Positions 1,281 through 19,727 of a DNA stretch of 46,030 nucleotides are shown here, in pieces. The stretch covers positions 1 through 46,030 of the forward strand of contig JBLNCV010000193.1 in assembly GCA_050260975.1 (NCBI GenBank), written 5' to 3'. The first letter of the stretch is position 1; every line of letters begins with the position of its first letter. The translations under genes and the position numbers were made by a program. The notes under the pieces are model-generated. The model was not told the DNA's origin and did not search any database. It saw only the letters and a list, made by a program, of their open reading frames with translations. This stretch comes from Syntrophothermus sp. (GTDB taxonomy: Bacteria; Bacillota; UBA5301; JAMCQP01).

Positions 1281-1284
1281 CCCC

Positions 1285-3707: not shown

Positions 3708-4255
3708 TGCCCGACACCCCCTTTGCCGTCCGGGTTGAGGTCGCTTTGGGCATCCGCCCTGGATGCCAATGCGGCTGCCGCCGTCTTGCCAGCCACGCTC
3801 TCGATAGCGTCCACAATCTTGCTATAACCGGTACACCGGCAGAGGTTGCCTGAGATAGCCACCCGAATCTCCTCCCTGGTAGGCGCCGGGTTGGCATCCA
3901 TTAAGGCTTTGGCCGCCAGAACCATTCCAGGCGTACAATAACCACACTGAACGGCGCCGTGGTCCAAAAATGCCTGCTGGATCGGGTGTAATTCTTGTGT
4001 TGTCCCCACCCCCTCGATGGTGATGACTTCGTGTCCGGCGACCTCCATGGCCATCACCAGGCAGGAGTTTACCGGAGTGCCGTCCAAAAGGACGGTGCAA
4101 GCCCCGCAGTCGCCCTCCCCGCATCCCTCCTTGGTACCGGTCAACTGCAAAACATCGCGCAGGAGATCGATCAAGCGCAGGTTAGGGGGAATGGTAACCT
4201 GCACGTCCCGACCGTTGATCTTCACCTGTAAAAGGCGCTCGCCCTTTGTTTCCAT
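3704..4255 (-). CDS. Molybdenum hydroxylase small subunit, 2x[2Fe-2S]
   Basis: 183 aa ORF with CGEGDCGACTV, CGYCTPGM and CRCTGY cysteine clusters. Carries a roughly 30 aa Ala/Gly-rich C-terminal tail. Confidence 0.92.
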   Translation of the reverse strand: METKGERLLQVKINGRDVQVTIPPNLRLIDLLRDVLQLTGTKEGCGEGDCGACTVLLDGTPVNSCLVMAMEVAGHEVITIEGVGTTQELHPIQQAFLDHGAVQCGYCTPGMVLAAKALMDANPAPTREEIRVAISGNLCRCTGYSKIVDAIESVAGKTAAAALASRADAQSDLNPDGKGGVGQ

Positions 4256-5084
4256 TGGCGTTGACCCCCTTTAAGCCGTGTTGAGCGGCCACGATTGCCT
4301 CCAACACTCCTCCCCCGATAGCTCTGGCCTTATCGGAGATGGAAAAGCAATATGAACGTTCCCCTCTGGGATCGATGTCCCCCACCTTCATCCCTGCGGT
4401 AACCCTCAGGCCCTCGCGGAGGATCCCCCGGAGCACTCCGGAGATCTTCGCCTGTACCTCGACCTTTCCGGCACTCTCCACATAAGCAACCGGGTCTCCG
4501 GCCGCAACCCGATCCCCAATGGCCGCAACCGGCCTGAAGATCCCTTCCTGTGGCGCCCGCACCACCCGTTCCGCGGCAAAACCGCCGACTGGTTCAGGTA
4601 TCCCGGTATCCGGCTCGGCCTGCCCGTCCCAGATTACTTTGCCTAGATTGTGCCCTCGTCTGGTCTCCACCACCGCATGGACATCCAGACCGGCGGTAAA
4701 TCCCGGGCCGAGCCCAATCACCAGCGGAGCCTGATCCAATCGGGTGCCGAGGTTGCGTTTGGCCAAAATAGCATCTACCAATACCATTGGGGTAAGTTTT
4801 GCGATGCTTCGCCCCTCCGGATCCACCAGCACCGGTAGCATTTCCTGGGCCAGCGTCCGGAGCGCTTCGTCTACAGATCCGGCCAGCAGGGCGGTAACAC
4901 CCTCAACGGCCGCCCGTCCTTCATAGACCGCTTCCGCAAAGGCTACAGCACGCCGGATGACCGTCGGCTGAGGGAGCTCCAGAATAACCGCCCGAAAACC
5001 GGCGGACCACAAGCGATGCGCCACGCCACTGGCCAGATCCCCACCACCCCGGATGACCACCAATGGTGCTTGTTTTGCAGGCAA
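4182..5084 (-). CDS. yqeB: YqeB-family selenium-dependent molybdenum hydroxylase maturation protein (putative)
   Basis: 300 aa ORF with a TTG start preceded by GGGGTGG. The VVIRGGGDLASGVAHRL Rossmann-like N-terminus, the length and the overall pattern resemble YqeB/EF2563-type proteins as I recall them. It lies between xdhC and the hydroxylase genes. The 3' end overlaps the 2Fe-2S gene by 74 nt. Confidence 0.6.
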   Translation of the reverse strand: MPAKQAPLVVIRGGGDLASGVAHRLWSAGFRAVILELPQPTVIRRAVAFAEAVYEGRAAVEGVTALLAGSVDEALRTLAQEMLPVLVDPEGRSIAKLTPMVLVDAILAKRNLGTRLDQAPLVIGLGPGFTAGLDVHAVVETRRGHNLGKVIWDGQAEPDTGIPEPVGGFAAERVVRAPQEGIFRPVAAIGDRVAAGDPVAYVESAGKVEVQAKISGVLRGILREGLRVTAGMKVGDIDPRGERSYCFSISDKARAIGGGVLEAIVAAQHGLKGVNANGNKGRAPFTGEDQRSGRAGYHSP

Positions 5085-5165
5085 CCTTTCGCCACCCCGC
5101 TCTCCAGCCTCTCCGGGAATCTTGTATTCCGACTTCTCTAAGCCGCGGACGCTCTGACTCCCCGA

Positions 5166-5969
5166 TCACGCCTCCCGGCTTGCCGAAAGCATTCGCCCGG
5201 TCCCGCCGTTTCTGGCCATGATTATTTCCGCGATAATGCTTACCGCGATCTCCGCCGGAGTTTCGGCCTGAATATCCAGGCCTATCGGGGCGTGCACCCG
5301 CTTCAACATTGCGGGATCGATCCCCTTCTCCTCCAGATTGCGAAAGATCACCGCCACCTTTCGCCGGCTGCCCACCATTCCGATGTAACGGGCTTCCGAG
5401 CGTACCGCCCGCTCCAGTGCCGGCTCGTCGCTGTCCGGCGTGAGAATGACCACATATGAAGAGGAGTTCAACGCCATCTGGCCGTCGAAGGCATCCACAT
5501 ACCCGGCCCGCACAACCCGCACCCCGGCGGGGAAACGATCCTCCCGAGCAAACTCCGGCCTGGGGTCCACCACCGTCACCTCAAAATCCAGCATCGACCC
5601 CATCGCGGCCAATGGCGCCCCGATGTGCCCCGCACCAAGGATAATCAACCGGGGTGGGGGCGGGATCACCTCCACAAATAGTTCCGTCGTCCCACCGCAG
5701 TTCATGTGCAACCCACCCGGCTTGTTCTTGTCCAATTCGTACCGGAAGACCCGGGAAGAGCCCTCCTGGATGGCTTGCCGCGCATCCTGAACGGCGGCGG
5801 CCTCCACCGGCCCACCACCCACCGTCCCCCAGGTGCGGCCATCGGAAAGCACAATCATTTTAGCTCCGGTGTGGCGCGGGGTCGAGCCCCTGGCGCTGAT
5901 CACCGTCACCAGGGCCACGGTCTGGTTATCCTTTAGCAATTCCGTGACTTTTTGGAAGATGTCCAGCAC
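5166..5969 (-). CDS. xdhC: XdhC/CoxI-family molybdenum cofactor insertion chaperone
   Basis: LDIFQKVTELLKDNQTVALVTVISARGSTPRHTGAKM and GGGPVEAAA, followed by the Rossmann motif RLIILGAGHIGAPLA. Start placed at GTG 5969 (SD GAAGGTGG upstream) rather than at the ORF-track start 6119, which would overlap mocA. Confidence 0.8.
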   Translation of the reverse strand: MLDIFQKVTELLKDNQTVALVTVISARGSTPRHTGAKMIVLSDGRTWGTVGGGPVEAAAVQDARQAIQEGSSRVFRYELDKNKPGGLHMNCGGTTELFVEVIPPPPRLIILGAGHIGAPLAAMGSMLDFEVTVVDPRPEFAREDRFPAGVRVVRAGYVDAFDGQMALNSSSYVVILTPDSDEPALERAVRSEARYIGMVGSRRKVAVIFRNLEEKGIDPAMLKRVHAPIGLDIQAETPAEIAVSIIAEIIMARNGGTGRMLSASREA

Positions 5970-5979
5970 ACAACCACCT

Positions 5980-6594
5980 TCAACTTTCCCATCTCGCTCG
6001 CGCGGCCCGATAGTCTTCAAGGGTGTCAATGTCCACGCAGATTCCGGCAGAATGCGTTTCAAGCACAACCACATCTTCCGGATGTTTATCCAGCAGCACC
6101 TTCCCGCCTTGATCGCCATCCAGACGCATCAGTTCCGGGGCCCAACGCATGTCAAACAATACCGGGTTCCCCCGTACCCCGTGGTAACTCGGTACAATAA
6201 TAGAGCCCGCCCCCGAGCGGTATTCATCGATCAGGGCATCCAAAACCGCAGCCTCTACAAAAGGTTGGTCTCCAAGCACAAAGACCGCGGCGCTGGTTCG
6301 CGGCGGGACCGCGCGCAAGCCGGCGCGTACCGAAGTACTCAACCCTTTTGCGTAATCCGGGTTGTGCACCACAAAAACGCCGTTGGCCCGCCCAATTTCG
6401 GCCACCTCCCGGTGGCCGCAACCGGTTACCAGCAATGCCTCGCCCACTTGCGAAGCCAGAACCTGGCGGATCACCCATTCCACCATCGGCCTGCCGCCCA
6501 GAGGCATGAGAAGTTTCATCCGCGCCGGATACATACGCCGGGATCGGCCCGCCGCCAGGATTATGGCTGTAACCCCCGGAGTACGGCCCACCAA
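5980..6594 (-). CDS. mocA: MobA-like nucleotidyltransferase, probable molybdenum cofactor cytidylyltransferase
   Basis: 204 aa ORF. AIILAAGRSRRM, KLLMPLGGRPMV and VLGDQPFV are NTP_transf_3/MocA-type motifs. SD GAGGGGGTGG lies upstream of the TTG/GTG start. Confidence 0.75.
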   Translation of the reverse strand: MVGRTPGVTAIILAAGRSRRMYPARMKLLMPLGGRPMVEWVIRQVLASQVGEALLVTGCGHREVAEIGRANGVFVVHNPDYAKGLSTSVRAGLRAVPPRTSAAVFVLGDQPFVEAAVLDALIDEYRSGAGSIIVPSYHGVRGNPVLFDMRWAPELMRLDGDQGGKVLLDKHPEDVVVLETHSAGICVDIDTLEDYRAARARWES

Positions 6595-6609
6595 CCGATC
6601 GCCACCCCC

Positions 6610-7491
6610 TCATCGGATCGTTACCCATTCGATGACAGGATCCGGAAGGCCCACGTGACCCAAAAGAAATCCCTGGATATTGGTTTCCTGTATATTCTCC
6701 CGGCCGAAAAGCACGGCCCGGGCAAGTTCCCGTGCCGCCGCCAGGCCGGCCTCATCTTCCACTTTATTGATCAAAGGCACCACCGCCGCTCCAGGCGGCA
6801 CCCCCTTGCACAAGCCGTTCGGGTGCAGGAACAAGTCCACCAGGGCCTGTGCAGTAACCCTCTCCCCCCGTGACAATCCCGTCAATTGAGCCACCAGTTC
6901 CGGCCGGTGCACATAAGCCTCTGTAAGAGGCTTATCCCAGGCATCCCTTCCCAAAACCGGAATCACGAGCCCAGTCGAAGCGGGAATGACCGGTTCGTGC
7001 GGCCCCGGAGCCTTGAGCGGCCGCCCGCGGGCTCCATCGGCCTCCACCAGAATATACTTGACGTGGTGAAAGAGCGCTTGTGACAGACGGTCAATCCAAT
7101 CCGGCGGGATCCCGCGCAACTTGGGCCGGTCTTTGCCGCCATCGTGCAATCCCGCCGCCACCATGATCCGGAGAGCCCGCCTGGCAGCCTGCGCCTGAAC
7201 AACACCTCCGGCTAAGATCTCTTGCAGGGCTTGCAGAATCCGCCCTTCCAGCACCGGATACTCATCCGCCAACACCAGACGGTCCACTTCGCTGGCCCTG
7301 GGCGCAAACATGGCCGTGGTCGTGGTAAGCACCACCGGCCCGGCGACAGCCGCCAGTTCCGCCGCCAGCACATACAAAGCTGTGGTCTTCCCGCCCGCCC
7401 CGGTAAAGGATATAACCCGGCAAACATCCTGGCCCGAAGCCGCTCCAAATTGTTCGGGACCCAGCGCCTCGAGAGCATTAAAAAATTTCAT
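6610..7491 (-). CDS. yqeC: YqeC-family selenium-dependent hydroxylase accessory protein (putative)
   Basis: 293 aa ORF. ISFTGAGGKTTALYVLA (P-loop-like), VLTTTTAMF and ILVEADGARGRPLKAPGPHEPVIP match my recollection of the YqeC family. Confidence 0.7.
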   Translation of the reverse strand: MKFFNALEALGPEQFGAASGQDVCRVISFTGAGGKTTALYVLAAELAAVAGPVVLTTTTAMFAPRASEVDRLVLADEYPVLEGRILQALQEILAGGVVQAQAARRALRIMVAAGLHDGGKDRPKLRGIPPDWIDRLSQALFHHVKYILVEADGARGRPLKAPGPHEPVIPASTGLVIPVLGRDAWDKPLTEAYVHRPELVAQLTGLSRGERVTAQALVDLFLHPNGLCKGVPPGAAVVPLINKVEDEAGLAAARELARAVLFGRENIQETNIQGFLLGHVGLPDPVIEWVTIR

Positions 7492-7534: not shown

Positions 7535-8224
7535 TCACGGCACCAGCGCGAGCGGACGGATCGGGGAGGCTGTTCCTCCCTCGATCTTCATTATGGTGCA
7601 GATCTGCTGAAACCGCGGCGGCAACCGGTCCAGGTTGGTATAATTTTCCATAACCAGGATGTTACGCGGTTTGGCCCGCATCAAGGTGATGTGGGCCGGA
7701 AATCCCATGTCTTCCGGGTGGTCGAGGTTGATGGTGTCCGTCCCCACCGCCCGCACCCCGCGGTCCCGCAGGAGTTCGGCCCCCGCCTTGTCCAACCCGG
7801 GGTAGTTGTTCCGGTAGTAGTCCCAGTCGTTCCAGTACCTGGGCATGCCGGTGTAAAACAGGACAATGTCGTCCTCTTTGATCCGCTCGCCGGTCTTCTT
7901 CTCCCAGTAAAGAATCTCCTCAACCCCGAAGTGCTCCCCGCCCTTCTTATAGGAGACGTCAACCACCACGGTCTCCCCGATGAGGGCATCCGGCCGCACC
8001 TTCTCCAGGCTGACCCCTTCCGGGTTGAAATGCACCGGCGCATCCATGTGGGTGCCGGTATGCTCGCCGAGGATCAGGGCGTTGGAAACATAGCCGGTCG
8101 GGTTGCCGGCCGCGTCCCGGAAGTCTTCATAGGTCGTCCAGCGTTTCCGGATCGTCACCCGCGGGTACGCCAGAAAAACCGGCATATTTTCCGAGATGGT
8201 CTGGCCCAGGTCGATAAATTTCAT
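7535..8224 (-). CDS. Cyclase-family metal-dependent hydrolase (kynurenine formamidase / isatin hydrolase fold)
   Basis: Carries the HTGTHMDAPVHF (HxGTHxDxPxH) signature. Start placed at MKFIDLGQ (ATG 8224) behind SD GGAGGTGG. The ORF track begins at 8266. Confidence 0.8.
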   Translation of the reverse strand: MKFIDLGQTISENMPVFLAYPRVTIRKRWTTYEDFRDAAGNPTGYVSNALILGEHTGTHMDAPVHFNPEGVSLEKVRPDALIGETVVVDVSYKKGGEHFGVEEILYWEKKTGERIKEDDIVLFYTGMPRYWNDWDYYRNNYPGLDKAGAELLRDRGVRAVGTDTINLDHPEDMGFPAHITLMRAKPRNILVMENYTNLDRLPPRFQQICTIMKIEGGTASPIRPLALVP

Positions 8225-8294
8225 AATGCCACCTCCGAACTTCACCGCTTTTGATTGCAGATCCAACCGGCGATCCAGCGGCCGGAGCAGATTT

Positions 8295-10214
8295 TCACTC
8301 CACCAGCGGCGGCAGGATCCGGTAATTGTTCACATCTATGAGGCCTCGGTCGGTAATCTTCCAGGCAGGGCTGGTCGTCAGAGCCAGAAACGAAAGGTGC
8401 ATGAAGGGAGCATGTAAGGTACAACCCAACTCCTCCTGCATCACCCGGTGCAAAAGTGCGACGCGCCGGCTCAGTTCAGGCCCGCTCAACTCGTCGGTAA
8501 TCAGCCCTGCCACCGGCAGGCGAAGTTCAGCCAGCACCCGGCCGCCTTTCACCACTGCAATCCCGCCGCCTATGGCAATTACTCTGTTCACCGCGCAGGC
8601 CATCTCTTCCGGGTCGGTCCCGGCTACAATGATGTTGTGAGTGTCGTGCGCCACACTTTCGGCAAAGGCGCCGGCCTTCAGCCCGAATCCTTTTACAAAG
8701 GCCCGGCCGATTCCGCCCGATCTGCCGTAGCGTTCCACCACCGCAATTCCGAGGATGTCCGAAGCGGGGTCCGGACAAACTGCCCCGTCCCGGATGGGAA
8801 GCGTCACTTCCAGAGATTCAGTCAGGTTCTGGTCGGGAATGACCACGATAACCCGCGCCCTGGCCAGGCCGTGACCGCCGCCGTAATGGCCGTAGCCAGC
8901 CGAGCCGGCATACCCATGTCCACCAGTGTTGCCGCTCCTATCAATCATCTCGCCGGCCTTCACCGCCAGATCCGCTGCGCTCACCGGCCCGCGCCGGACC
9001 GACATCTTTACGTCAATGGGGTATTCATAGGGCGGCAGCTCCAGAAGCAGCCGCCCGCCTTCGGCGGCCTTGCGCCCCTTGAGATAAACCTGTTCCACAT
9101 TCATCCGGCTCAGGTCCCCGATAATGGCCAGATCGGCCTGTTTGCCGGGAGCCAGCACCCCCACGTGCTCAAAGCCGAAATACGTGGCCGGATTGATGGT
9201 CACCATCTGAATCGCCTCCACCGGATCCACGCCGGCGGCGATCGTCCTGCGCACCACCTCGTTCATATGCCCCGAACGTTCCAGATCCTCGGCCACCATG
9301 TCGTCGGTGGCCAGGATGCACCGCCGGGAGTCCATCCCTTCTTCCGTGACGGCCCGGATGCATTCGGCCATGTTGCGCTGGGTGGAACCCTCCCGCATAA
9401 AGAGGTAGACACCCTGGCGGAGCTTCTCCACCGCCTCTTTCTTGGTGGTGGTCTCGTGGCAGGAGACCCGCCCGCCGCCGCAGATGATATGGGCCGCCAG
9501 AGCATTGCCAAACAGTTCCGGCGCGTTGCCGTCCACCATCTTGCCGATGCTTCTGGCATAGGCGGTGGAAGCCGCCAGATCGTCCACCACTCCCGGATTA
9601 TTGGCATAAACATACCTGGCGTTGCTGAACCCCTGCAGTTCACCAATGCCGATCACATGATAATACCCCAGGAGTTCCTCCATATCTTTGGAGGCGATAT
9701 CGTAGCCGGCGGTCTCCAGCCCCGGCGAGTCGGGGGTTAAAGAGGGAACTACAAAATAAACATTGCTGGGCGCCTGCCTGGCCTCTTCGGTTATGGCCTT
9801 TATCCCGGCGGGGCCAAGGGCGTTGCCGATCTCGTGCGGATCGGCAACCAGCGTGGTAGTCCCCGTGGGGATGGAGAGCCGGGCGAATTCCGAGACGGTC
9901 AGCATGCTGCTTTCAAAATGCATATGAGAATCAATGAATCCAGGGGCCACAAACCGGCCCTGAAGATCAACCACCTCGGTCTTTTCGCCGATCAGATCCG
10001 CCGCATTCCCCACCCGCAGGATCAACTCGCCGGCAATGGCCACATCGCCCGGGTACACCTCGCGGGTGATCACGTTTACGATCCGGCCGTTATTCAGGAC
10101 CAGATCCGCTTTGAGCCGGTCATCCATCAGGATGTCGATGAGCCTTCGCCGGACAATCGCATCTTTGGCCGCCGCCAGCTCCACGGACGCCACCCCCTCG
10201 TCAAAGATCGCCAT
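8295..10214 (-). CDS. Adenine deaminase-family amidohydrolase. Substrate could be adenine or another amino-heterocycle.
   Basis: 639 aa ORF. GFIDSHMHFESSM, ADPHEIGN and the overall layout match the Ade/AdeC family. Contains an unusual Gly/His/Tyr-rich insert, GNTGGHGYAGSAGYGHYGGGHG, encoded at about 8869-8940. Confidence 0.75.
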   Translation of the reverse strand: MAIFDEGVASVELAAAKDAIVRRRLIDILMDDRLKADLVLNNGRIVNVITREVYPGDVAIAGELILRVGNAADLIGEKTEVVDLQGRFVAPGFIDSHMHFESSMLTVSEFARLSIPTGTTTLVADPHEIGNALGPAGIKAITEEARQAPSNVYFVVPSLTPDSPGLETAGYDIASKDMEELLGYYHVIGIGELQGFSNARYVYANNPGVVDDLAASTAYARSIGKMVDGNAPELFGNALAAHIICGGGRVSCHETTTKKEAVEKLRQGVYLFMREGSTQRNMAECIRAVTEEGMDSRRCILATDDMVAEDLERSGHMNEVVRRTIAAGVDPVEAIQMVTINPATYFGFEHVGVLAPGKQADLAIIGDLSRMNVEQVYLKGRKAAEGGRLLLELPPYEYPIDVKMSVRRGPVSAADLAVKAGEMIDRSGNTGGHGYAGSAGYGHYGGGHGLARARVIVVIPDQNLTESLEVTLPIRDGAVCPDPASDILGIAVVERYGRSGGIGRAFVKGFGLKAGAFAESVAHDTHNIIVAGTDPEEMACAVNRVIAIGGGIAVVKGGRVLAELRLPVAGLITDELSGPELSRRVALLHRVMQEELGCTLHAPFMHLSFLALTTSPAWKITDRGLIDVNNYRILPPLVE

Positions 10215-10231: not shown

Positions 10232-10501
10232 CTAGCCACCGATATCGATGGAATCAATAATCCCTACCACGGCGGCATCCACCGGCGTGTCATTCCGCCG
10301 CACCGCCAGTGGTGAGACGCTGCCGGTCACGTACAAAACCCTTTCGCCCACCCCGGCACCCACGGTGTCCACCGCCACCAGCGGGCGGTCGTTGGGCGTC
10401 CCGTCCAAAGCCAGCGGTTGGACGATCAAAAATTTTGAGCCGACCAGTTTCTCATCCTTACGTGTGGCGATCACCGTGCCGATGACCTTACCTACCAGCA
10501 T
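10232..10501 (-). CDS. BMC-P vertex pentamer (EutN/CcmL/PduN family)
   Basis: MLVGKVIGTVIATRKDEKLVGSKFLIVQPL...VAVDTVGAGVGERVLYVTGS is a textbook EutN/CcmL sequence. ATG 10501 is preceded by AAGGGTGG. Confidence 0.9.
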   Translation of the reverse strand: MLVGKVIGTVIATRKDEKLVGSKFLIVQPLALDGTPNDRPLVAVDTVGAGVGERVLYVTGSVSPLAVRRNDTPVDAAVVGIIDSIDIGG

Positions 10502-11444
10502 CGCGCCCACCCTTTCCAGGCCTGATCCGGATCGTTATCCCGCGTTCCCTGGCCACATCCCTGGCCAGGGGCGTGACAATCGTCCCCGGCTCCACCACCA
10601 GTTCAATCTCTTTGCCAGCGCTGCCACCGCCGCCGGCGCCGGCCACCGCCCCTTTGCAAGCCAGCGCCTCTACCTCCGCGCGGGTGATAACCTTCCGGGA
10701 CGCTGCGGAACTCTCCGCTGGGATCCCCTTTAAGACACCCGGCGAGCGAGGTGTCCCGTCCTCCTCCTCGGGCGACGCCGGTTCCCCTGTAAACAGGCCG
10801 GGTAATTCGGCGACATCCACCAGGCGAACCCCATAAGAGGCCAGGATCTTGAGATTCTCTTCCATTCGCTTCACGACGGCGGCGTTTGGCTTGCCGGGAT
10901 CCGGGCCGCCGTTGAGCGCCCGCCCCGTACCATGAAAGATCTGTCCCAAGAAAGAGGGGTCGTGCGGATCCGCCGCGTTACGGGCAGCGGTCACCCTCTT
11001 GCCCGCCAAAAGGCCGTGCCAGATCAGGATGGCCGGCAATGTGTCATGGATCCCGGCCGCCAGTTTGGCCGCCGTATTGGCGGTCAACACCGGGACCACG
11101 ATCTCCTGATGCTCGCGTAAGAGAGTAGCGATCGCGGAAGACGAAGACTCATCACCATCCACGATAATCCGGGACAGCCGGAGTTCTTCCCGGAGGCGGT
11201 CCTGATCCACAAGCCGAGCGGCGGCTTTGGAAAGGACCAGGGCCACCTTCCAGCCTGCTTCCCTTAACCGGCCCAGAAAAGCCAACGCTTCCGCCTGGCC
11301 GGCCTCGCCGCCAGTCATTACCGCCAGCAGGCGCCCGGCGGGGTAACCCCCGGTTGCCCCAGAAGCCTCCAATTGCCGCAGGGTCTGATCCAGCACGTGT
11401 CGGGTCAAACCCTCAAGCCCAAGCCTCTCCTGCATCCCGCTCAC
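10488..11444 (-). CDS. BMC-associated protein: N-terminal amphipathic helix, degenerate flavoprotein-like (Rossmann) domain and a C-terminal V-T-P-L-A-R-D module
   Basis: 318 aa ORF. GLEGLTRHVLDQTLRQLEASGATGG looks like an encapsulation peptide plus linker. VVPVLTANTAAKLAAGIHDT resembles the PF02441 flavoprotein motif. The C-terminal KVITRAEVEAL...LVVEPGTIVTPLARDVARERGITI resembles modules I recall from PduM-type BMC proteins (unverified). Confidence 0.45.
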   Translation of the reverse strand: MSGMQERLGLEGLTRHVLDQTLRQLEASGATGGYPAGRLLAVMTGGEAGQAEALAFLGRLREAGWKVALVLSKAAARLVDQDRLREELRLSRIIVDGDESSSSAIATLLREHQEIVVPVLTANTAAKLAAGIHDTLPAILIWHGLLAGKRVTAARNAADPHDPSFLGQIFHGTGRALNGGPDPGKPNAAVVKRMEENLKILASYGVRLVDVAELPGLFTGEPASPEEEDGTPRSPGVLKGIPAESSAASRKVITRAEVEALACKGAVAGAGGGGSAGKEIELVVEPGTIVTPLARDVARERGITIRIRPGKGGRDAGR

Positions 11445-11475
11445 CCTCTGCCGCCTTCAATCTCCTTCTTCATCC

Positions 11476-11769
11476 TCACTTCTTCATCGTGGCTGCGGCG
11501 GGACCAAGAATGACCCTCTCCACCTCGCTATGCGGCCTGGGGATCACATGAACCGAGACCACTTCGCCGACTTTGGCAGCCGCGGCCGCTCCGGCGTCGG
11601 TCGCCGCCTTGACCGCGCCCACATCGCCGCGGACCATGATGGTCACCAGTCCAAACCCGATCTTTTCATAACCAACAATCGTCACATTGGCCGCCTTGAC
11701 CATGGCATCCGCGGCCTCCACCGCCCCCACCAGACCTTTTGTCTCCACCAGACCCAACGCTTCACCCAT
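11476..11769 (-). CDS. BMC-H shell hexamer (PduA/EutM-like)
   Basis: [60 protein letters not shown] is a canonical single BMC domain. Confidence 0.95.
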
Positions 11770-11770
11770 T

Positions 11771-12178
11771 TTAGGACCTCCTTCTGTTCGGCTTTTCCTT
11801 ATTGGTCTCTTCTACAACCCTGGCTTCCTTTTCATTTCCCACTCTGGCTTCTTTCTCGTTTCCCCGGGATCTTTGGATCACCGACTCCCGCGTCTCCAGA
11901 TTCTGCACCAGATCTTCCATCTGCTCGTGCGGCCGGGGAATTACGTGAACCGACAGCACCTTTCCCACTCTCTCGGCCGCTGCCCTCCCGGCGTCCACCG
12001 CGGCCTGAACCGCGGCAACTTCGCCCTCCAGCTTGGCGGTGATGCTCACCGCTTTCCCCGCCCCAATCACCCTTTCGTAGCCCAGGAATTCCACCCGGGC
12101 GGCTTTCGTGGCCGCATCCACCGCGGCCACCGCCGTGGCAAAACCGATGGTCTCAATCAGGCCAAGGGCACCGGGCAT
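11771..12178 (-). CDS. BMC-H shell hexamer with a charged, repeat-containing C-terminal extension
   Basis: [37 protein letters not shown]...[10 protein letters not shown] is a BMC domain. It is followed by a roughly 45 aa tail containing GNEKEARV twice. Confidence 0.9.
11816..11863 (-). repeat. 2 x 24 nt tandem repeat encoding [16 protein letters not shown] in the BMC-H tail
   Basis: Minus-strand codons gga aac gag aaa gaa gcc aga gtg / gga aat gaa aag gaa gcc agg gtt, read directly from the sequence. Confidence 0.85.
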
Positions 12179-12192
12179 CGCTGATCACCTCT

Positions 12193-12654
12193 TTAAAACG
12201 CCGGTTCCCGGCGCAAACAATGATTACGTGCAAAACACGCCAAGATCTCCCGGACATAATCCGCATGATACGGCGCTTGCCACCGTTCCTCCAGTTCCGA
12301 CGCCAACTCCTCAAGCTCCCCCCTGGTGTAACGGTAAGGCTCCAGGATGTCCCGGAGCTTCTCCTGGACGGCCGGAGTCAAGCTCTCCGCTTCCACCGCC
12401 AGGTGAAGATACCTGGCGACTTCAAGCTGGCCCCGGTTTTCCGCCAGTGTAGCCAGTTGCACCAGCGGCGCAAAGGTTCCAGCCGGCCGGTTGGGTTCCA
12501 CAACTGCCTTGCCTCCACCGGGACGGGCAAGCGTTGCCTCCGGAACAACGACCTCCCCTGCACCGGCATGGACCGGCCTGGAATCAGCCAGCAACCCGGG
12601 ATTTTCCGCCAAAACCTCTTTGATCAATTGAATCAGGGTACTTTTGGCGATCAT
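12193..12654 (-). CDS. Hypothetical BMC-locus protein with an N-terminal encapsulation-peptide-like helix
   Basis: MIAKSTLIQLIKEVLAENPG is an amphipathic helix followed by a Pro/Gly linker, in the style of PduP/PduD encapsulation peptides. I do not recognise the C-terminal domain. ATG 12654 lies behind AGGTGAGG. An alternative GTG at 12663 overlaps the upstream stop. Confidence 0.6.
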   Translation of the reverse strand: MIAKSTLIQLIKEVLAENPGLLADSRPVHAGAGEVVVPEATLARPGGGKAVVEPNRPAGTFAPLVQLATLAENRGQLEVARYLHLAVEAESLTPAVQEKLRDILEPYRYTRGELEELASELEERWQAPYHADYVREILACFARNHCLRREPAF

Positions 12655-12659
12655 CAGCC

Positions 12660-13640
12660 TCACCTGCGCAATTCATCGAGCAGTCCGATACCGACCGATT
12701 TGGCCGCGTCAAGCGCGTTACGGACCGCGGCTGGCGCTCCGGAAACCGTAAGCCACACTTCATTGGAGAAAGCTGAAAGATTGGACGGCCCGAGGTAATG
12801 CGTCGCCTCGACTTTGGCCGTCTTAACCGCCACGTCGGCCATCAAGAGACCAACCCCGGCGGGCGCGCCAATCATGATCCCAAAGGCCTGATCCGGCGTC
12901 GCATTGAAAGCCATGGCCAGCGCTCCGGCGGCCCTGGCGGTGTAATGCACCTCCACAGCCCCCACGTCCGAGGAGGTAACCTCGGTAAAATAATGATCCA
13001 CCGCCGCCAGGCCGATCTGCACCGCGCGGGTCACGTCCGCAACGTCGGGACCGCCGAACAGGATGTAGACGCCGTGCCCCGGCCCACCTAACCCGTCTCT
13101 GGCCATCTGAAGGGCCAGAATCTGTGAATTGGTGGCTTTAACCGCCTCATCCGCCGCCATGATCTGTGGCGCCGCGCCCAGCCGGGAACTGAGTATTCCG
13201 ATGGCGTGGTACCGTTCATCAAGCCCCATCTTGGCCCGCAGGCTCCGCTCCAGATTGGGGATGACCAGACCGATGGTTCCACCGGCAGCCGTGCCGATCA
13301 CCTCTTCCCGGCGGCGGCCGCCACCCGCCACCTGAATGGGATGCTGTACCGGTAGGCCGGTTGGCGCCCTTTTAACCGCCTGAGATATCTGGCCCCGCAC
13401 CAGGCTTTGAGTTGGGTTTGGCGCCGTGCCTTGCGCCGGAGATGGCAACGCCTTTTTCCCGGCTCCTGGTTCGACAGGCTGTAACGGGTTGCGCGCAACC
13501 GGGTACTCATCGGGCAACAAGCTTTTTCCTTCCCCAAAAGCGGAACTTTGCCCAAAATCAGCTTTCAGCCTGCTTGCGGAAGAAGAGCCGGTCCGCCTGA
13601 GGATCTCCGCCATGACCTTCTGCACCAGAGGATCCGCCAA
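12660..13640 (-). CDS. BMC-T shell trimer, PduB-like (tandem permuted BMC domains), with a long N-terminal extension
   Basis: The C-terminal roughly 210 aa (GTIGLVIPNLERSL...HAIGILSSRLGAAPQIMAADEAVKATN...GPGHGVYILFGG...HYTARAAGALAMAFNA...GAPAGVGLLMADVAVKTAKVE...FSNEVWLTVSGAPAAVRNALDAAKSVG) follow the PduB pattern. The N-terminal roughly 115 aa have the helix DPLVQKVMAEILRR followed by a Pro-rich linker. Confidence 0.85.
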   Translation of the reverse strand: MADPLVQKVMAEILRRTGSSSASRLKADFGQSSAFGEGKSLLPDEYPVARNPLQPVEPGAGKKALPSPAQGTAPNPTQSLVRGQISQAVKRAPTGLPVQHPIQVAGGGRRREEVIGTAAGGTIGLVIPNLERSLRAKMGLDERYHAIGILSSRLGAAPQIMAADEAVKATNSQILALQMARDGLGGPGHGVYILFGGPDVADVTRAVQIGLAAVDHYFTEVTSSDVGAVEVHYTARAAGALAMAFNATPDQAFGIMIGAPAGVGLLMADVAVKTAKVEATHYLGPSNLSAFSNEVWLTVSGAPAAVRNALDAAKSVGIGLLDELRR

Positions 13641-13713
13641 GGTTCAATCACCACCTTTACCGTTCTTGCAATGCCACAAACTCACGAGGATTACGCGACG
13701 AGAACCATGAGAA

Positions 13714-14013
13714 TCATTCCTGACCCGATTCGTCGACAACAGGCAACATCTTGGCCACCTCGCTGTTGGGGCTGGGGATCACGTTCACGGAGATCACTTC
13801 TCCCACCTGCATGGCGGCTTGTTCACCGGCCTGGGTGGCGGCCTGCACCGCCGCGACTTCACCCTGGACGGTGATGCAGATCAGCCCGGAACCTACCTGC
13901 TTGTAATCGATAATCTGCACATTGGCCGCCTTGACCATGGCATCCGCCGCCGCAATGGCCGCGGGCAGGCCCCTGGTCTCCACAAATCCCAGCGCTTTGC
14001 GCAACTGACTCAC
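13714..14013 (-). CDS. BMC-H shell hexamer
   Basis: [57 protein letters not shown] is a canonical BMC domain. Confidence 0.95.
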   Translation of the reverse strand: MSQLRKALGFVETRGLPAAIAAADAMVKAANVQIIDYKQVGSGLICITVQGEVAAVQAATQAGEQAAMQVGEVISVNVIPSPNSEVAKMLPVVDESGQE

Positions 14014-14050: not shown

Positions 14051-15403
14051 TCACCAGCCGTCCTCCAGATAGTCCTCCAACCGTATCCGGTCGCTCCCCG
14101 GAATCACCGGTCGCTGGAAGACCTCCGCCGCGTTCAGCGGGTAAGTGGCATCGATCCCCATCTTGGCCGAGTACCCCCGCAGGTTGTTGGACGGATCCAG
14201 CCCATTCCCACGGGCGCCGGGAATGATCACCACATCCTGGTCGGCCTGGACCCGGCTGGCGATCGCCCATTCCACCTCAAAGGGGTCGAAGATGTCCACG
14301 TCGTCGTCCACAACTACCACATGCTTCACGTCTTTATTGCTGGCAAGAGCCGCCATGATGGCGCTCTTGCCCTCACCCTCGTACTTCTTCTGGATGGAGA
14401 CGATGGCATGGAAACGTCCGCTGCCGGCCATGGTAAGGTGTACGGCCTTCACGTCCGGCACGATATGCCGGACGTGCAAAAAGAGCAAAACCTCTCGCAT
14501 CAGGGCATTGGGCAACTTGTGTTCAAAACTGGAAGGAAAGATCGTCTGGAAGATCGGGTTATTCCGGTGTGTAATCGCGCTGATCTCCACCACCGGCTGC
14601 TCGGAGGCTGGTCCGTAATACCCGGCCAGCTCCCCGAAGGGCCCTTCCTTATACCGCACGTAGGGCAGCATCCGGCCTTCCAGCACGATCTCCGCCTCAG
14701 CCGGCACCTCCAGATCCACCGTCCGGCAACGCACCAGTTCCACCGGCTGGCCGGCGAGAGCACCCGCCACGTCGATCTTGTCCAGGCCGAAGTGCTGGGT
14801 GCTGAGTTGCGAGGCCAGGGTAATGATCGGGTGCACCCCGAGCATCACCGCCACCTCGAGAGGCCGGTTTTGCGCCTCATAGTCGCGGTACATCTGCATC
14901 AGGCCCGGCGACTCGATGAGAATCGACAGCCGGTTGCCACCGTTGACCTGCATCCGGCGGATGGACGTGTAGCGTCGGCCCCCCGCCGGATCCTTCACGA
15001 TCAACACCCCGGCGGTGATAAAGGGCGCCGAGTCCTTTTCGTGAAAAGTGGGCACGGGGAAGAGCTTCGGGATGTCTATTCCCCTGGTGATGACCGTCTC
15101 CTGGACCGGCCCGCCGGAGACCACCCGGCTCGGCAAAGGCGAGGAGATGGCTTCAATATACTTGGGGATGAGCTCATCAACCTTCACCCCCAGGGTCTCG
15201 GCAACCCGCCGGCGATCCCCGCAAAGCCCCGCCGCCACCGGCTGGCTATAGCCCTGCACATGTTCAAAGAAGATCGGGCGAGTTCCTTTAAACTTGTTCA
15301 CCAGGGCGCCCAGTTCGAATCTGGCATCCACCGGACGCCTGACGATTAACAGGTCGTTCTTGCGCTTCAGGTTTTCCAGGTGCTTGCGCAACGAGAGGGT
15401 CAT
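14051..15403 (-). CDS. UbiD-family prFMN-dependent (de)carboxylase
   Basis: 450 aa ORF. The N-terminal LRKHLENLKRKNDLLIVRRPVD and the length and pattern throughout fit the UbiD family. It sits directly downstream of ubiX. Confidence 0.85.
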   Translation of the reverse strand: MTLSLRKHLENLKRKNDLLIVRRPVDARFELGALVNKFKGTRPIFFEHVQGYSQPVAAGLCGDRRRVAETLGVKVDELIPKYIEAISSPLPSRVVSGGPVQETVITRGIDIPKLFPVPTFHEKDSAPFITAGVLIVKDPAGGRRYTSIRRMQVNGGNRLSILIESPGLMQMYRDYEAQNRPLEVAVMLGVHPIITLASQLSTQHFGLDKIDVAGALAGQPVELVRCRTVDLEVPAEAEIVLEGRMLPYVRYKEGPFGELAGYYGPASEQPVVEISAITHRNNPIFQTIFPSSFEHKLPNALMREVLLFLHVRHIVPDVKAVHLTMAGSGRFHAIVSIQKKYEGEGKSAIMAALASNKDVKHVVVVDDDVDIFDPFEVEWAIASRVQADQDVVIIPGARGNGLDPSNNLRGYSAKMGIDATYPLNAAEVFQRPVIPGSDRIRLEDYLEDGW

Positions 15404-15432: not shown

Positions 15433-15984
15433 TTAGTTCCCCCAGCGGGGAAAGATATCGTGGTCGATCTCCAGCACATCCAGGATCTTGCCCACCACAA
15501 AAGTGATCGCCTGGGCCAGATCCCGGGGCCGGTGATAGAAGGCCGGCGAGGCCGGGAGGATGTGGGCGCCGGCTCTTGCCAGCCGCAACATATTCTCCAG
15601 GTGGATTACATCCAGGGGGGTCTCCCTGGGCACCACCACCAGTTTCCGGCCTTCTTTGAGCATCACATGGGCGGAGCGGGTCAACAGGCTGTCCGACAAA
15701 CCCCCGGCCAAGGCCCCCAGCGTATGCATGGAGCAGGGAACCACAACCATGGCCTCCGCGCGAAACGAACCGCTGGCCAGTGGGGAAAACAGGTCGTCCA
15801 CCTGATGCAATCGGGCAAAACGGCCAAGATCCCGCACCATTAGCCCACATTCGTGGCGCAGAGTTCGCTCGCCCATGGACGTCACCACCAGATGCGTCTC
15901 AATCTGTAGATTTTCCAGCGCCTGTAACAGGCCCACGGCATAGATAGCGCCACTGGCTCCGGTGACACCCACCACGACCCGCAT
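15433..15984 (-). CDS. ubiX: UbiX flavin prenyltransferase (prFMN synthase)
   Basis: MRVVVGVTGASGAIYAVGLLQAL...VVPCSMHTLGALAGGLSDSLLTRSAHVMLKEGRKLVVVPRETP is the classic UbiX/Pad1 sequence. ATG 15984 follows SD AAGGTGGG. Confidence 0.9.
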   Translation of the reverse strand: MRVVVGVTGASGAIYAVGLLQALENLQIETHLVVTSMGERTLRHECGLMVRDLGRFARLHQVDDLFSPLASGSFRAEAMVVVPCSMHTLGALAGGLSDSLLTRSAHVMLKEGRKLVVVPRETPLDVIHLENMLRLARAGAHILPASPAFYHRPRDLAQAITFVVGKILDVLEIDHDIFPRWGN

Positions 15985-16040
15985 TTGCAACCCACCTTAC
16001 AATCCGCCACAATCAGCCCGTAGAAATATTCCAGAAAATT

Positions 16041-16082: not shown

Positions 16083-16646
16083 TCAAGCGGTTTTGGCCTT
16101 CTCTTTTGCGAACTCCTTCTTATACTCGTCCACCGTCATGATCCGGGCGAAGAGGGCCATATCCCGCAACCCGGCCTGGTGCATCTCCTCATCCTTGGAA
16201 GCGCAACCGTCGCTGATGGCGATCACCCGGTAAGCATGGTAGAGCGCCTCGGAAGCAGTGCTCCTCACGCAGACGTTGGTCCACACGCCAGTGACCACCA
16301 CCGTGTCTATCCCTTCCTCGCGGAGGTACAGGTCCATATCAGTGTACGTGAATGAACTATGCCGTCTCTTCTGGACCACATAATCCTTGTCGCTCGGGCG
16401 CAACTCGGGCACAAAGTCCGAACCCCAGGTGCCTTTGATGGCATGCACCGGCCGCACCTTGAAATCGGCGTCGCCCACCCGGTGCGCCTCCTGGACAAAG
16501 ACCACGTGGATGTCGTTCTCATGGGCAAAATCCACCAGTTCCCGGATCTTCGGAATGATCTTCTGCCCGTCCGGGCAGAAGAGGGCCCCTTTGGGGTCCA
16601 CAAAGTCATTCAACATGTCGATGACCAAAATAGCGTGCTTGCTCAT
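16083..16646 (-). CDS. Isochorismatase-family cysteine hydrolase (RutB / N-carbamoylsarcosine amidase / nicotinamidase-like)
   Basis: 187 aa ORF. AILVIDMLNDF (Asp), VVQKRRHSSF (Lys) and VVTGVWTNVCV (nucleophilic Cys) form the D-K-C triad. Confidence 0.85.
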   Translation of the reverse strand: MSKHAILVIDMLNDFVDPKGALFCPDGQKIIPKIRELVDFAHENDIHVVFVQEAHRVGDADFKVRPVHAIKGTWGSDFVPELRPSDKDYVVQKRRHSSFTYTDMDLYLREEGIDTVVVTGVWTNVCVRSTASEALYHAYRVIAISDGCASKDEEMHQAGLRDMALFARIMTVDEYKKEFAKEKAKTA

Positions 16647-16708
16647 AGCTATGCCTCCTCTGGCTCACTAACCTTCACACCCGACCTTCAGGACGCAATC
16701 ATCGCGGC

Positions 16709-18121
16709 CTAGAATTTCAGGACCCGGTCCAGACGGCTGATGGTCTGCCTCTTTACGAACTCGCCGTAGCCAGGCCGGCCCACAATACCCTTGCCGTCTT
16801 CATAAACCACCTTGCCCCGGACAATGGTCTTCACCGGTTTGCCCCGCAATTTCATGCCGTGCAGCGGGGTGTACTTGGCCATGGTGTACATCTTGTCCTT
16901 GTCGATGGTCCACTCGTAATTGAGGTCGATAACGGTGAGATCCGCGTCGGAACCGATCTCCATGCCTCCCTTCTTCGGATAAAGCCCGTAATGGATAGCC
17001 GGGTTTTTGGAGAGCACCTCCACCAGCCGCGACAGGGAGATGCGGCCCTTGTTGTACCCCTCGCTGACAATTACCGGTACCATGGTCTCCGTGCCCGGAA
17101 TCCCGGGGAAACTGTTCCAGATGTGCATGCCAGGTGCGGTCTTTTCGGTGGGAATCTCATACGGCGCGTGATCCGTGGCCACGAAATCGATTCGCCCATC
17201 GGCCAGCGCCTTCCAGTGCTCGACGTTGTCCTCTTTGCCCCGAAGCGGCGGCGCGATCTTGGCGAAGGACCCGAAACGGGTCATGGCGTCCTGGGCGTTA
17301 ATAGTCAGATAATGCGGGCAGGTCTCGGCGGTCACCGGCAAGCCGCGCTTCTTGGCCTCGCCGATCAGGATCGCCCCCTCCTTGGTGCTCATATGCACCA
17401 CATGCATCCGTACCCCGGTGTACTCGGCGAAGCTGATCACCATTTCGATGGCGACCTTTTCGGCAAGGCTCAACCGGGCCTCGGCCCAGGCCGGGCCGTC
17501 CATCCGCCCATCGGCCTGCAACTTCTGGACATAAAAATCGCAGAGGTTGTAGTTCTCCGCGTGAACACCCACCGGCAGGCCGGTCTTGGCTACCTCCTTG
17601 AAGATCTCCAGCATCTCGGCGTCGGAGACCCTGGGGTAGGTGGGTACAGACGGCGTCATGTAGACCTTGAAGGCCACCACTCCCGCGTCAGCCTGCTTCT
17701 GCACATGCTCCAGAGCGTGATTGCGGACATCCTCGCCGGTCACGCCGCCCCACATGGCGTAATCTACGACGGCCTTGTTCTTTACGGCCTCCAGCTTGTT
17801 TTCCAACTGGGCAACCGTCCGCACCGAAGGATTGCTGGTGCAGGGCATGTCGATCACCGTGGTCACGCCGCCGCTGGCCGCCGCGCTGGTGCCGGTCTCA
17901 AAATTTTCCCGGTGGGTGAAACCCGGATCGTTGATATGGGTGTGTGAGTCGATGCAACCCGGGATGACCAGGTTGCCGCCGGCATCGATGACTTCTCTTG
18001 AATCCACATCCGCCGTGGGTGAAAAGCCGGCGATCTTTCCGTCCCGGATCAGGATATTGGTCTCCACCATCCTGTCGCCCTGCGGGATCTGAGCGTTCTT
18101 TACCAGCACATCAACCTTCAT
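16709..18121 (-). CDS. Cyclic amidohydrolase (dihydropyrimidinase / allantoinase / hydantoinase type)
   Basis: 470 aa ORF. GCIDSHTHIN (HxH), AFKVYM (lysine to be carbamylated), GVHAEN, HVVHMST and ATDHAP are the binuclear-metal amidohydrolase motifs of this subfamily. Confidence 0.85.
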   Translation of the reverse strand: MKVDVLVKNAQIPQGDRMVETNILIRDGKIAGFSPTADVDSREVIDAGGNLVIPGCIDSHTHINDPGFTHRENFETGTSAAASGGVTTVIDMPCTSNPSVRTVAQLENKLEAVKNKAVVDYAMWGGVTGEDVRNHALEHVQKQADAGVVAFKVYMTPSVPTYPRVSDAEMLEIFKEVAKTGLPVGVHAENYNLCDFYVQKLQADGRMDGPAWAEARLSLAEKVAIEMVISFAEYTGVRMHVVHMSTKEGAILIGEAKKRGLPVTAETCPHYLTINAQDAMTRFGSFAKIAPPLRGKEDNVEHWKALADGRIDFVATDHAPYEIPTEKTAPGMHIWNSFPGIPGTETMVPVIVSEGYNKGRISLSRLVEVLSKNPAIHYGLYPKKGGMEIGSDADLTVIDLNYEWTIDKDKMYTMAKYTPLHGMKLRGKPVKTIVRGKVVYEDGKGIVGRPGYGEFVKRQTISRLDRVLKF

Positions 18122-18193
18122 TGTTCCTTCCTCCCTTGTCCAGGTATTTTTATTTACGGCTTACGCTGCCAACCGTAAAAGTATGCCGTTTTA

Positions 18194-19096
18194 TCACAGC
18201 CCGTACAGGTGATTCTCGAGAATCTGGTTCCGGTCAAACCCCTCAAGTTGCAGGAAGTATTCCAGCGAATTAACCAGCGATTCCATGGGCACCACGCCCA
18301 CCAGTTGGGTGCCCACCACTGGCACGCCGTAGCGGGCCGCCTCCATCTTGATGACCTCAAAAGTACGGTAGAGCGGCGTAGCCACGTAATCAAACATGTT
18401 CATGGAGACCACCACCTGCTTGCGTTCCTCAAAACGCAGGCCCACCGAGCGCACGGTGGTAAAGCCGCCGCTGGGCCCGCGCACAATCCTGGCGATGGAT
18501 TTGGCAATCTCCAGGTTATCCGTACCCAAAATGACGTTGAAAGCCACCAGCGGGTTGGTGCCGGCGCTGACGATCACCGCCCCGGCGGTAGGATGCAAAG
18601 CGGCCGGCCCGATGTCCGGCGCCCGCTCCGGCGTGTGCGCCACCTTTTTGAGCCCCTCGTACTGACCCTGGCGTATGTAATCCAGAACCTTGCGCTCCGG
18701 GGTGCGGGCATTCTCGCCGGTAAAGTAGACGGGCACCTTAAACCTTTTATAGACTTCCTGGCCGATCTCTTCCGCCAGGTTCACACACTCCCCTAGCGTG
18801 ATGTTTTTGAGAGGAAAGATGGGAATGGTATCCTGGGCGCCGATACGCGGATGGGAGCCGGTTTGTTCCTCCATATTGATAAGTTCGATGGATTTGCCCG
18901 CCATGTTCAGAAGAGCTTCTTTCAGCGGCTGCGGCTGGCCGATGAGCGTCACCACCGTCCGGTTGAAGTCGGGGTCGGGGGCGTAGTCCAGGAGTTTCAC
19001 TCCGGGAATGTTGCGCGCCTGATCCACCACGGCTTCGATTACCTCTTTGCGGCGGCCGTCGCTGAAGTTCGGCACCGCCTGAATGTACTTCTGCAT
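18194..19096 (-). CDS. Formiminotransferase (FtcD N-terminal domain type, stand-alone)
   Basis: 300 aa ORF. MQKYIQAVPNFSDGRRKEVIEAVV...DPDFNRTVVTLIG matches the glutamate formimidoyltransferase domain. There is no cyclodeaminase domain. SD AGGGAGGGA lies upstream. Confidence 0.85.
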   Translation of the reverse strand: MQKYIQAVPNFSDGRRKEVIEAVVDQARNIPGVKLLDYAPDPDFNRTVVTLIGQPQPLKEALLNMAGKSIELINMEEQTGSHPRIGAQDTIPIFPLKNITLGECVNLAEEIGQEVYKRFKVPVYFTGENARTPERKVLDYIRQGQYEGLKKVAHTPERAPDIGPAALHPTAGAVIVSAGTNPLVAFNVILGTDNLEIAKSIARIVRGPSGGFTTVRSVGLRFEERKQVVVSMNMFDYVATPLYRTFEVIKMEAARYGVPVVGTQLVGVVPMESLVNSLEYFLQLEGFDRNQILENHLYGL

Positions 19097-19162: not shown

Positions 19163-19205
19163 AGCCAAAATAAATGAGAGAGACGCAATCAGCATCCCTC
19201 TCATA
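19163..19205 (-). terminator. Intrinsic terminator forming the riboswitch expression platform
   Basis: The RNA AUGAGAGGGA-UGCUGAUUGCG-UCUCUCUCAU forms a 10 bp stem and is followed by UUAUUUUGG. Its 5' arm is the 3' strand of aptamer helix P1, so the two structures are mutually exclusive. Confidence 0.75.
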
Positions 19206-19267
19206 GCCAGGCGGTTTACGGCTGCCCGGTAGAAACTCTCGGCCCATATCGCCGAGGATATATGAGA
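19199..19267 (-). promoter_or_regulatory. Purine riboswitch aptamer, guanine/hypoxanthine/xanthine class (C at the specificity position)
   Basis: Minus-strand RNA: UCUCAUA UAUC CUCGGC-GAUAUGG-GCCGAG AGUUUCUAC CGGGCAG-CCGUAAA-CCGCCUG GC UAUGAGA. Compared with the B. subtilis xpt G-box, L2 AUAUGG, J2/3 GUUUCUAC, L3 CCGUAAA and the J3/1 C before UAUG are all conserved. P1 has 7 bp and P2 has 6 bp. Confidence 0.85.
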
Positions 19268-19727
19268 CCGGCAAAAACCGTTATGGATTTGAGAGTATCA
19301 TGCTCTCGCACCGTGACGACTTCCCGGACTTTAGTCCGAGGCTTCTCGGTTCATTTGCAGGCACCAGCGTACCCACATCCCCGAAGGCTCCGTCCGAGCC
19401 CTTGTTCTTTGCTGGCTTAGCTCATAAACTTCTCGGCTATATATTTTCGCGGGACCTGGCAAAACTCCTTCTTAAATAAACCAAATTTGCCAGAAAATCT
19501 GTTTATGTAGGATGACTTCTAGCCCCTTTGCCTTTGTATGAACAAGCGTTTTGTCAATTTACTTTTCCGATGACTTGTCCACCCTGCCTTTGTTCGCGGC
19601 GGCTCTCATTACCGGATAAATAAACTCTAAATGGGAAAATCTATCTCGATGGCGAAGAGAGGTCCAACCAACCACTCTACACTATATGCAGATCAAATAT
19701 ACAGGCCAAGGTAAAGGAGAATCGCCC

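Follow-up and report, generated by a model that had tools for sequence, protein, structure and literature searches.

The operon and its purine riboswitch

We analyzed a stretch of 46,030 nucleotides (nt) from Syntrophothermus sp. (Bacillota; contig JBLNCV010000193.1 of assembly GCA_050260975.1), hereafter called the window, whose host class is sparsely sampled (11 genomes in the reference set). Three minus-strand open reading frames (ORFs), encoding proteins of 300, 470 and 187 amino acids (aa) and separated by gaps of 72 and 62 nt, are the first three genes downstream of a purine riboswitch (RF00167). They head a one-strand operon of ~19 kb that extends to position 357. We infer that the 470-aa and 187-aa proteins carry out the first two steps, and the 300-aa protein the final one, of the clostridial hydrolytic route from xanthine to glycine, and that their genes form part of a purine-induced microcompartment operon. 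We give this reading, in which each substrate assignment is a prediction, a probability of about 0.83. The features of the operon are the following:

19184-19285, minus strand: purine riboswitch aptamer in the operon leader (RF00167, 74.9 bits against a gathering score of 37, full model 1-102)
18194-19096, minus strand: formiminotransferase domain protein, 300 aa, proposed glycine formiminotransferase, XauG (PF07837, PF02971, TIGR02024)
16709-18121, minus strand: cyclic amidohydrolase, 470 aa, proposed xanthine amidohydrolase or 'xanthinase' (PF01979)
16083-16646, minus strand: isochorismatase-like cysteine hydrolase, 187 aa, proposed 4-ureido-5-imidazolecarboxylate amidohydrolase, XauC (PF00857)
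15433-15990, minus strand: UbiX flavin prenyltransferase (PF02441, TIGR00421)
14051-15403, minus strand: UbiD-family decarboxylase, proposed 4-amino-5-imidazolecarboxylate decarboxylase (PF01977, PF20695, PF20696)
10232-14013, minus strand: whole shell block (PF00936 matches and PF03319)
13714-14013, minus strand: BMC-H, in the shell block
12660-13640, minus strand: BMC-T, in the shell block
12193-12663, minus strand: 156-aa protein, within the shell block
11771-12178, minus strand: BMC-H, in the shell block
11476-11769, minus strand: BMC-H, in the shell block
10488-11444, minus strand: 318-aa flavoprotein-like protein, within the shell block
10232-10510, minus strand: BMC-P, in the shell block (PF03319 at 10253-10501)
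8295-10214, minus strand: adenine-deaminase-like amidohydrolase, 639 aa, candidate 4-aminoimidazole deaminase (PF13382, PF01979)
7535-8266, minus strand: cyclase-family hydrolase, 243 aa, candidate 4-imidazolone hydrolase (PF04199)
357-7491, minus strand: YqeC, XdhC, YqeB and four xanthine dehydrogenase subunit genes, a selenium-dependent molybdenum hydroxylase set (Pfam and NCBIfam matches)

Beyond the three leading genes, transcription runs through the UbiX-UbiD pair, the shell block, the adenine-deaminase-like gene, the cyclase-family gene, YqeC-XdhC-YqeB and the four xanthine dehydrogenase subunits, in this order. PF00936 was found in four ORFs, and one of these encodes a protein of 326 aa that has two BMC stretches. 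The locus is of the Xau/BUF1 microcompartment type: BMC-H, BMC-T and BMC-P genes are clustered with the signature enzymes and lack an aldehyde dehydrogenase core, no aldehyde dehydrogenase being found among the ORFs scanned against family profiles. Ravcheev et al. 2019 (PMC6620236) predicted that the Xau locus serves to degrade xanthine anaerobically, and Sutter et al. 2021 (PMC8217296) list loci of this type as BUF1; 'XAU' was rejected as a name from the latter paper, which uses BUF. The same gene set is present in the Xau locus of Alkaliphilus metalliredigens QYMF, with FtcD (Amet_4586), the amidohydrolase (Amet_4584), the isochorismatase (Amet_4583), UbiD (Amet_4581), shell and xanthine dehydrogenase genes.

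The paired hydrolase genes

The 470-aa protein carries an Amidohydro_1 domain (PF01979, 119 bits). Among solved structures, its closest match is the L-hydantoinase of Arthrobacter aurescens (1gkr, E 2.2e-100); allantoinases, D-hydantoinases and dihydroorotases rank next. The binuclear cyclic-amidohydrolase motifs pointed out in the first-pass annotation (HxH, AFKVY and DHAP) were all read in the translation, as H60-T-H62, AFKVY with K152, and D317-H-A-P, together with H187 and H243. One genome per species was scanned, which yielded 262 loci encoding a relative of the protein; the 80 loci analyzed, to which all locus counts out of 80 refer, carry orthologues that are all at least 65% identical. 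The binuclear-metal ligands H60, H62, K152, H187, H243 and D317 align to 1gkr, and these residues and the motifs are invariant in the 80 orthologues. The protein resembles 1gkr, allantoinases and dihydropyrimidinases over a full-length alignment and in all ligands of the binuclear center. Unlike hydantoinases and allantoinases, its orthologues form a tight group linked to isochorismatase, UbiD and shell genes, with no tie to hydantoin or allantoin genes. The sole amidohydrolase paralogue in the host genome is 35% identical and is presumably the biosynthetic dihydroorotase. NCBIfam has no model named for xanthine amidohydrolase or 'xanthinase'.

The 187-aa protein belongs to the Isochorismatase family (PF00857, 176 bits) and matches 3hb7 (E 3.8e-79), 3eef, 1nba and RutB. 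The D-K-C triad of isochorismatase-like hydrolases, also noted earlier, is present in the translation as D10, K93 and C126 and is invariant in 77 orthologues, as are E53, H55 and H68. The latter residues align with the Asp/His/His positions of 3eef, which is related to N-carbamoylsarcosine amidase, and they may be the counterpart of the metal site described in nicotinamidases. The PDB entry 3hb7, a structural genomics 'isochorismatase hydrolase' that carries no function, is ~64% identical to the 187-aa protein over 179 residues and has the same D-K-C triad and E/H/H positions. We take its source organism to be Alkaliphilus metalliredigens.

The 80 related loci belong nearly all to Clostridia, Bacillus-like genera and Paenibacillus. 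An isochorismatase gene lies immediately downstream of the amidohydrolase gene, on the same strand, in 77 of them. UbiX is present in 62 loci and UbiD in 66, shell genes in 61-65, the adenine-deaminase-like gene in 60 and a cyclase-family homologue (~30% identity) in 59. Since this neighborhood recurs in dozens of genomes, it lies far beyond chance. The gene for the 470-aa protein is linked to the other pathway genes under purine control in both Clostridia and Bacilli. The formiminotransferase gene is found directly upstream of the amidohydrolase gene in 30 of the 80 loci, mostly from Clostridia, and is absent from this position in the Bacillus-like and Paenibacillus loci of the set; it was likewise reported lacking in two Bacillus genomes (Ravcheev 2019, PMC6620236). 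The window and these 30 loci, including the Alkaliphilus locus (L021), have the order FtcD-amidohydrolase-isochorismatase-UbiX-UbiD in common. They differ in the cyclase-family gene: the window has it further downstream within the operon, whereas in the loci with an upstream FtcD it is usually divergent and upstream.

In three metagenome-assembled genomes (MAGs) labeled Desulfobacteraceae, Melainabacteria and Desulfovibrio (L022:3495-6613, L025:9453-12832 and L043), the amidohydrolase is 69-70% identical, and a distant UbiD-family gene (28-31% identical) directly follows it, with no isochorismatase gene. Near-identical Bacillota-type xau loci or proteins (L016, L039, P0086) carry the names Lutibacter (Bacteroidota), Pseudomonas and Bradyrhizobium, and these records are probably mislabeled or contaminated assemblies.

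In six Paenibacillus loci, the amidohydrolase-isochorismatase pair stands separately among unrelated neighboring genes, and a purine riboswitch of its own precedes it by 120-160 nt:

L027, 2975-3078: purine riboswitch
L038, 9772-9875: purine riboswitch
L044, 4968-5071: purine riboswitch
L046, 9773-9876: purine riboswitch
L061, 4124-4227: purine riboswitch
L063, 4243-4345: purine riboswitch

Ten loci containing only the pair were considered as proof that the amidohydrolase and the isochorismatase-like hydrolase act alone on xanthine. This was rejected in its strong form, because all four Paenibacillus genomes among the five 'pair only' genomes searched have shell genes and a UbiD orthologue elsewhere; in Paenibacillus sp. 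HW567, the distance between these genes and the pair is ~20 kb. What stands is a weaker claim, namely that the two genes move together and are under joint control. In a Thermosyntropha MAG (L035, G257), the pair is accompanied by a UbiD orthologue (54% identical) and no BMC-domain gene was found anywhere in the genome, a possible variant of the pathway without a shell. In the four Paenibacillus genomes, each match to the UbiD orthologue (G254:C1:271524-272858, G255:C6:109434-110774, G256:C15:26591-27925 and G258:C1:1419766-1421097) contains one in-frame stop, the stops differing in kind (TAA, TAG, TAG and TGA); each may simply mark where the gene naturally ends within the matched stretch.

The formiminotransferase and its histidine-pathway paralogue

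The 300-aa protein contains both formiminotransferase subdomains, FTCD_N (PF07837, 222 bits) and FTCD (PF02971, 71 bits), and a family profile search revealed no cyclodeaminase domain in it, which bears out its earlier description as a stand-alone FtcD formiminotransferase domain. It aligns to the formiminotransferase domain of mammalian FTCD (1qd1, E 1.9e-57), with H82 at the position of the catalytic His82. It has the two-subdomain fold family and the catalytic histidine in common with the glutamate formiminotransferase of the histidine pathway (TIGR02024). It differs from that enzyme in belonging to a separate clade, in having purine instead of hut neighbors and in nine positions that are fixed differently.

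The host genome carries two formiminotransferases. The other copy, also of 300 aa and 51% identical to the window copy, lies in a hutH-hutU-ftcD-hutI operon on contig C209 (L084:4810-12550) and scores 441.4 bits against TIGR02024. As the histidine pathway has its own transferase, the window copy would be free for formiminoglycine. A gene resembling 2',3'-cyclic-nucleotide phosphodiesterase/nucleotidase is located downstream of this hut operon. The only cyclodeaminase-family gene of the host adjoins folP on contig C10, and a formate-tetrahydrofolate ligase is also present. In four other loci (L092:2252, L094:7513, L101:6041 and L102:10318), a cyclodeaminase/FchA-family gene was found directly after or near a purine-type formiminotransferase gene. 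A search for the glycine reductase GrdA gave no match in the host genome, and its control was also without a match in any of its genomes, which makes this negative uninformative.

We surveyed formiminotransferases in 251 genomes sampled across the phylum, choosing matches by similarity alone and examining the neighbors at 40 places. The matches form two bands of identity to the window copy, at least 61% and at most 54%. Xau or xanthine dehydrogenase neighbors were found in 10 of 12 loci of the upper band, and hut neighbors in none of the 12, as for the window copy itself. In the lower band, by contrast, hut neighbors were found in 22 of 28 loci and xau neighbors in 0 of 28. Six genomes contain both kinds. 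In a tree of 66 formiminotransferases, a long branch divides the purine-linked and hut-linked sets (Shimodaira-Hasegawa-like approximate likelihood ratio test, SH-aLRT, 100). Among the 37 members of the purine-side clade, 35 have purine neighbors and 2 are uninformative, and the hut-side clade (n = 29) comprises 23 members with hut neighbors and 6 uninformative ones. Thirty of the purine-linked sequences in the tree do not constitute independent evidence, because they were collected through their linkage to the amidohydrolase. His82 and 45 other positions are common to at least 97% of the 66 sequences, and nine positions are fixed differently in the two sets (purine/hut): A7/C, F44/H, L62/A, T90/V, F125/L, G127/E, N129/A, S177/G and D236/N.

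Glycine formiminotransferase (EC 2.1.2.4) has been known as an activity since 1956. No gene for it was found in C. acidurici (Hartwich et al. 2012), and a gene was later predicted as XauG (Ravcheev 2019, PMC6620236). In the literature searched, the gene is only predicted, and no assay of its product as a glycine formiminotransferase is reported. We tentatively suggest, as a possibility somewhat short of even odds, that the purine-linked clade is this enzyme and was derived from the histidine-pathway enzyme through a few fixed substitutions that re-sized the acceptor pocket from glutamate to glycine; H44F, A62L, V90T, L125F, E127G, A129N and G177S (hut type to purine type) would be examples. 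The formiminotransferase is the least established of the three assignments.

The proposed route and competing assignments

In the proposed route, the 470-aa amidohydrolase would open the pyrimidine ring of xanthine at N1-C6 to give 4-ureido-5-imidazolecarboxylate, from which the 187-aa cysteine hydrolase would strip the carbamoyl group as CO2 and NH3, leaving 4-amino-5-imidazolecarboxylate. This product would be decarboxylated by UbiD with a cofactor supplied by UbiX. The adenine-deaminase-like enzyme and the cyclase-family hydrolase would then convert aminoimidazole to imidazolone and imidazolone to formiminoglycine, and the 300-aa formiminotransferase would finally move the formimino group to tetrahydrofolate, with release of glycine. 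Dihydropyrimidinases cleave six-membered cyclic ureides to N-carbamoyl products, and cyclase-family enzymes include lactam and formamide hydrolases. The mapping of the three genes to xanthine amidohydrolase, ureidoimidazolecarboxylate amidohydrolase and glycine formiminotransferase, first put forward in the first-pass annotation, is supported at the level of predicted substrates by the protein families, the synteny, the riboswitch and the formiminotransferase clades.

We take the 470-aa enzyme as the xanthine opener because its fixed pairing with the ureido hydrolase fits two consecutive steps, the first and the second, and because five operon enzymes can then be matched one by one with the five steps that lead from xanthine to formiminoglycine. 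Several points weigh against the proposed route. The roles of all three enzymes are predictions from sequence. The riboswitch governs the whole operon and is therefore silent on which enzyme acts on the purine. That the xanthinase of Tong et al. 2023 belongs to the protein family of the 470-aa protein is itself a prediction. Two database models name other activities: the 470-aa protein narrowly passes the NCBI allantoinase model TIGR03178 (374 bits, cut-off 357.85), and the 300-aa protein scores above the threshold of TIGR02024, the model for glutamate formimidoyltransferase (355.7 bits, cut-off 221.25). Finally, Ravcheev 2019 (PMC6620236) assigned xanthine opening (XauA) to the cyclase-family protein Amet_4587 and imidazolone opening (XauF) to the hydantoinase-family protein Amet_4584.

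This last assignment defines the strongest alternative, in which the pathway is the same and two roles are swapped: the cyclase-family protein would open xanthine, and the 470-aa enzyme would open 4-imidazolone to formiminoglycine. It draws on the closest solved relatives of the 470-aa protein, hydantoinases and allantoinases, which open five-membered rings. We consider it unlikely, because it leaves the adenine-deaminase-like enzyme, present in most related loci, without a function, and because the deaminase that the published scheme requires, XauE of the S-adenosylhomocysteine (SAH)/guanine-deaminase type, is absent from the window operon. The near-invariant position of the 470-aa gene beside the ureido-hydrolase gene, the separate riboswitch-controlled pair in Paenibacillus and the dihydropyrimidinase-type chemistry of the first step also argue for the 470-aa enzyme as the xanthine opener.

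It is less probable still that the enzyme set acts on a related N-heterocycle, such as another oxopurine or a pteridine-derived intermediate, which would enter the same imidazole chemistry. Such a substrate would be compatible with the predicted nature of the assignments and with the three non-Bacillota loci described above, which show the family in variant contexts (amidohydrolase and distant UbiD, with no isochorismatase gene). Xanthine is favored over it by the guanine-class riboswitch, by the xanthine dehydrogenase genes and by the way in which five enzymes match the Rabinowitz pathway step for step, as well as by the published characterization as PMC12507026 cites it. The least probable alternative takes the database names as right, the 470-aa protein being an allantoinase or hydantoinase and the 300-aa protein the glutamate formiminotransferase of the histidine pathway; both proteins score above the curated cut-offs, and public records label close homologues of the 470-aa protein allantoinase AllB, but no allantoin-pathway genes were found on searching the host genome (92% complete), neither allantoate amidohydrolase (AllC) nor the decarboxylase of 2-oxo-4-hydroxy-4-carboxy-5-ureidoimidazoline (OHCU), a higher-scoring FtcD occupies the hut operon, the clade of the window formiminotransferase was never seen beside hut genes, and the operon is under a purine riboswitch and includes xanthine dehydrogenase.

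The system is already known, and the window is a further example from a sparsely sampled lineage, which adds little beyond one more locus. The characterization by Tong and co-workers reportedly covered four hydrolases of different families and a prenylated-FMN (prFMN) decarboxylase, the formiminotransferase not being included. The locus was predicted in 2019 and, by citation, characterized in 2023: Li et al. (PMC12507026) credit Tong et al. 2023 (Cell Chem Biol 30:1104, PMID 37164019) with identifying and characterizing a 'xanthinase pathway' cluster in Clostridia and Bacilli and give the xanthinase a kcat of 0.1 per second. As cited there, the cluster encodes the same hydrolytic, O2-independent route, in which xanthine is converted to glycine by way of ureido- and amino-imidazole carboxylates, and it occurs in the same two groups as the 80 related loci. 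Our literature searches on ureidoimidazole intermediates and on UbiD with purine returned nothing relevant.

Through the hydrolytic xanthine route, spore-forming anaerobes and some bacilli convert purines to glycine, one-carbon units, CO2 and ammonia without oxygen. The capacity for purine fermentation is under-called in genomes and metagenomes, because automatic annotation gives allantoinase AllB and glutamate formimidoyltransferase for these proteins. The split between purine-linked and histidine-linked formiminotransferases provides a simple marker, together with a short residue list bearing on substrate choice. According to a review, an anaerobic purine pathway from Clostridium has been engineered into E. 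coli Nissle, enabling xanthine use, and the first two enzymes of the route are reported to have been introduced into a probiotic E. coli strain for clearing dietary purines.

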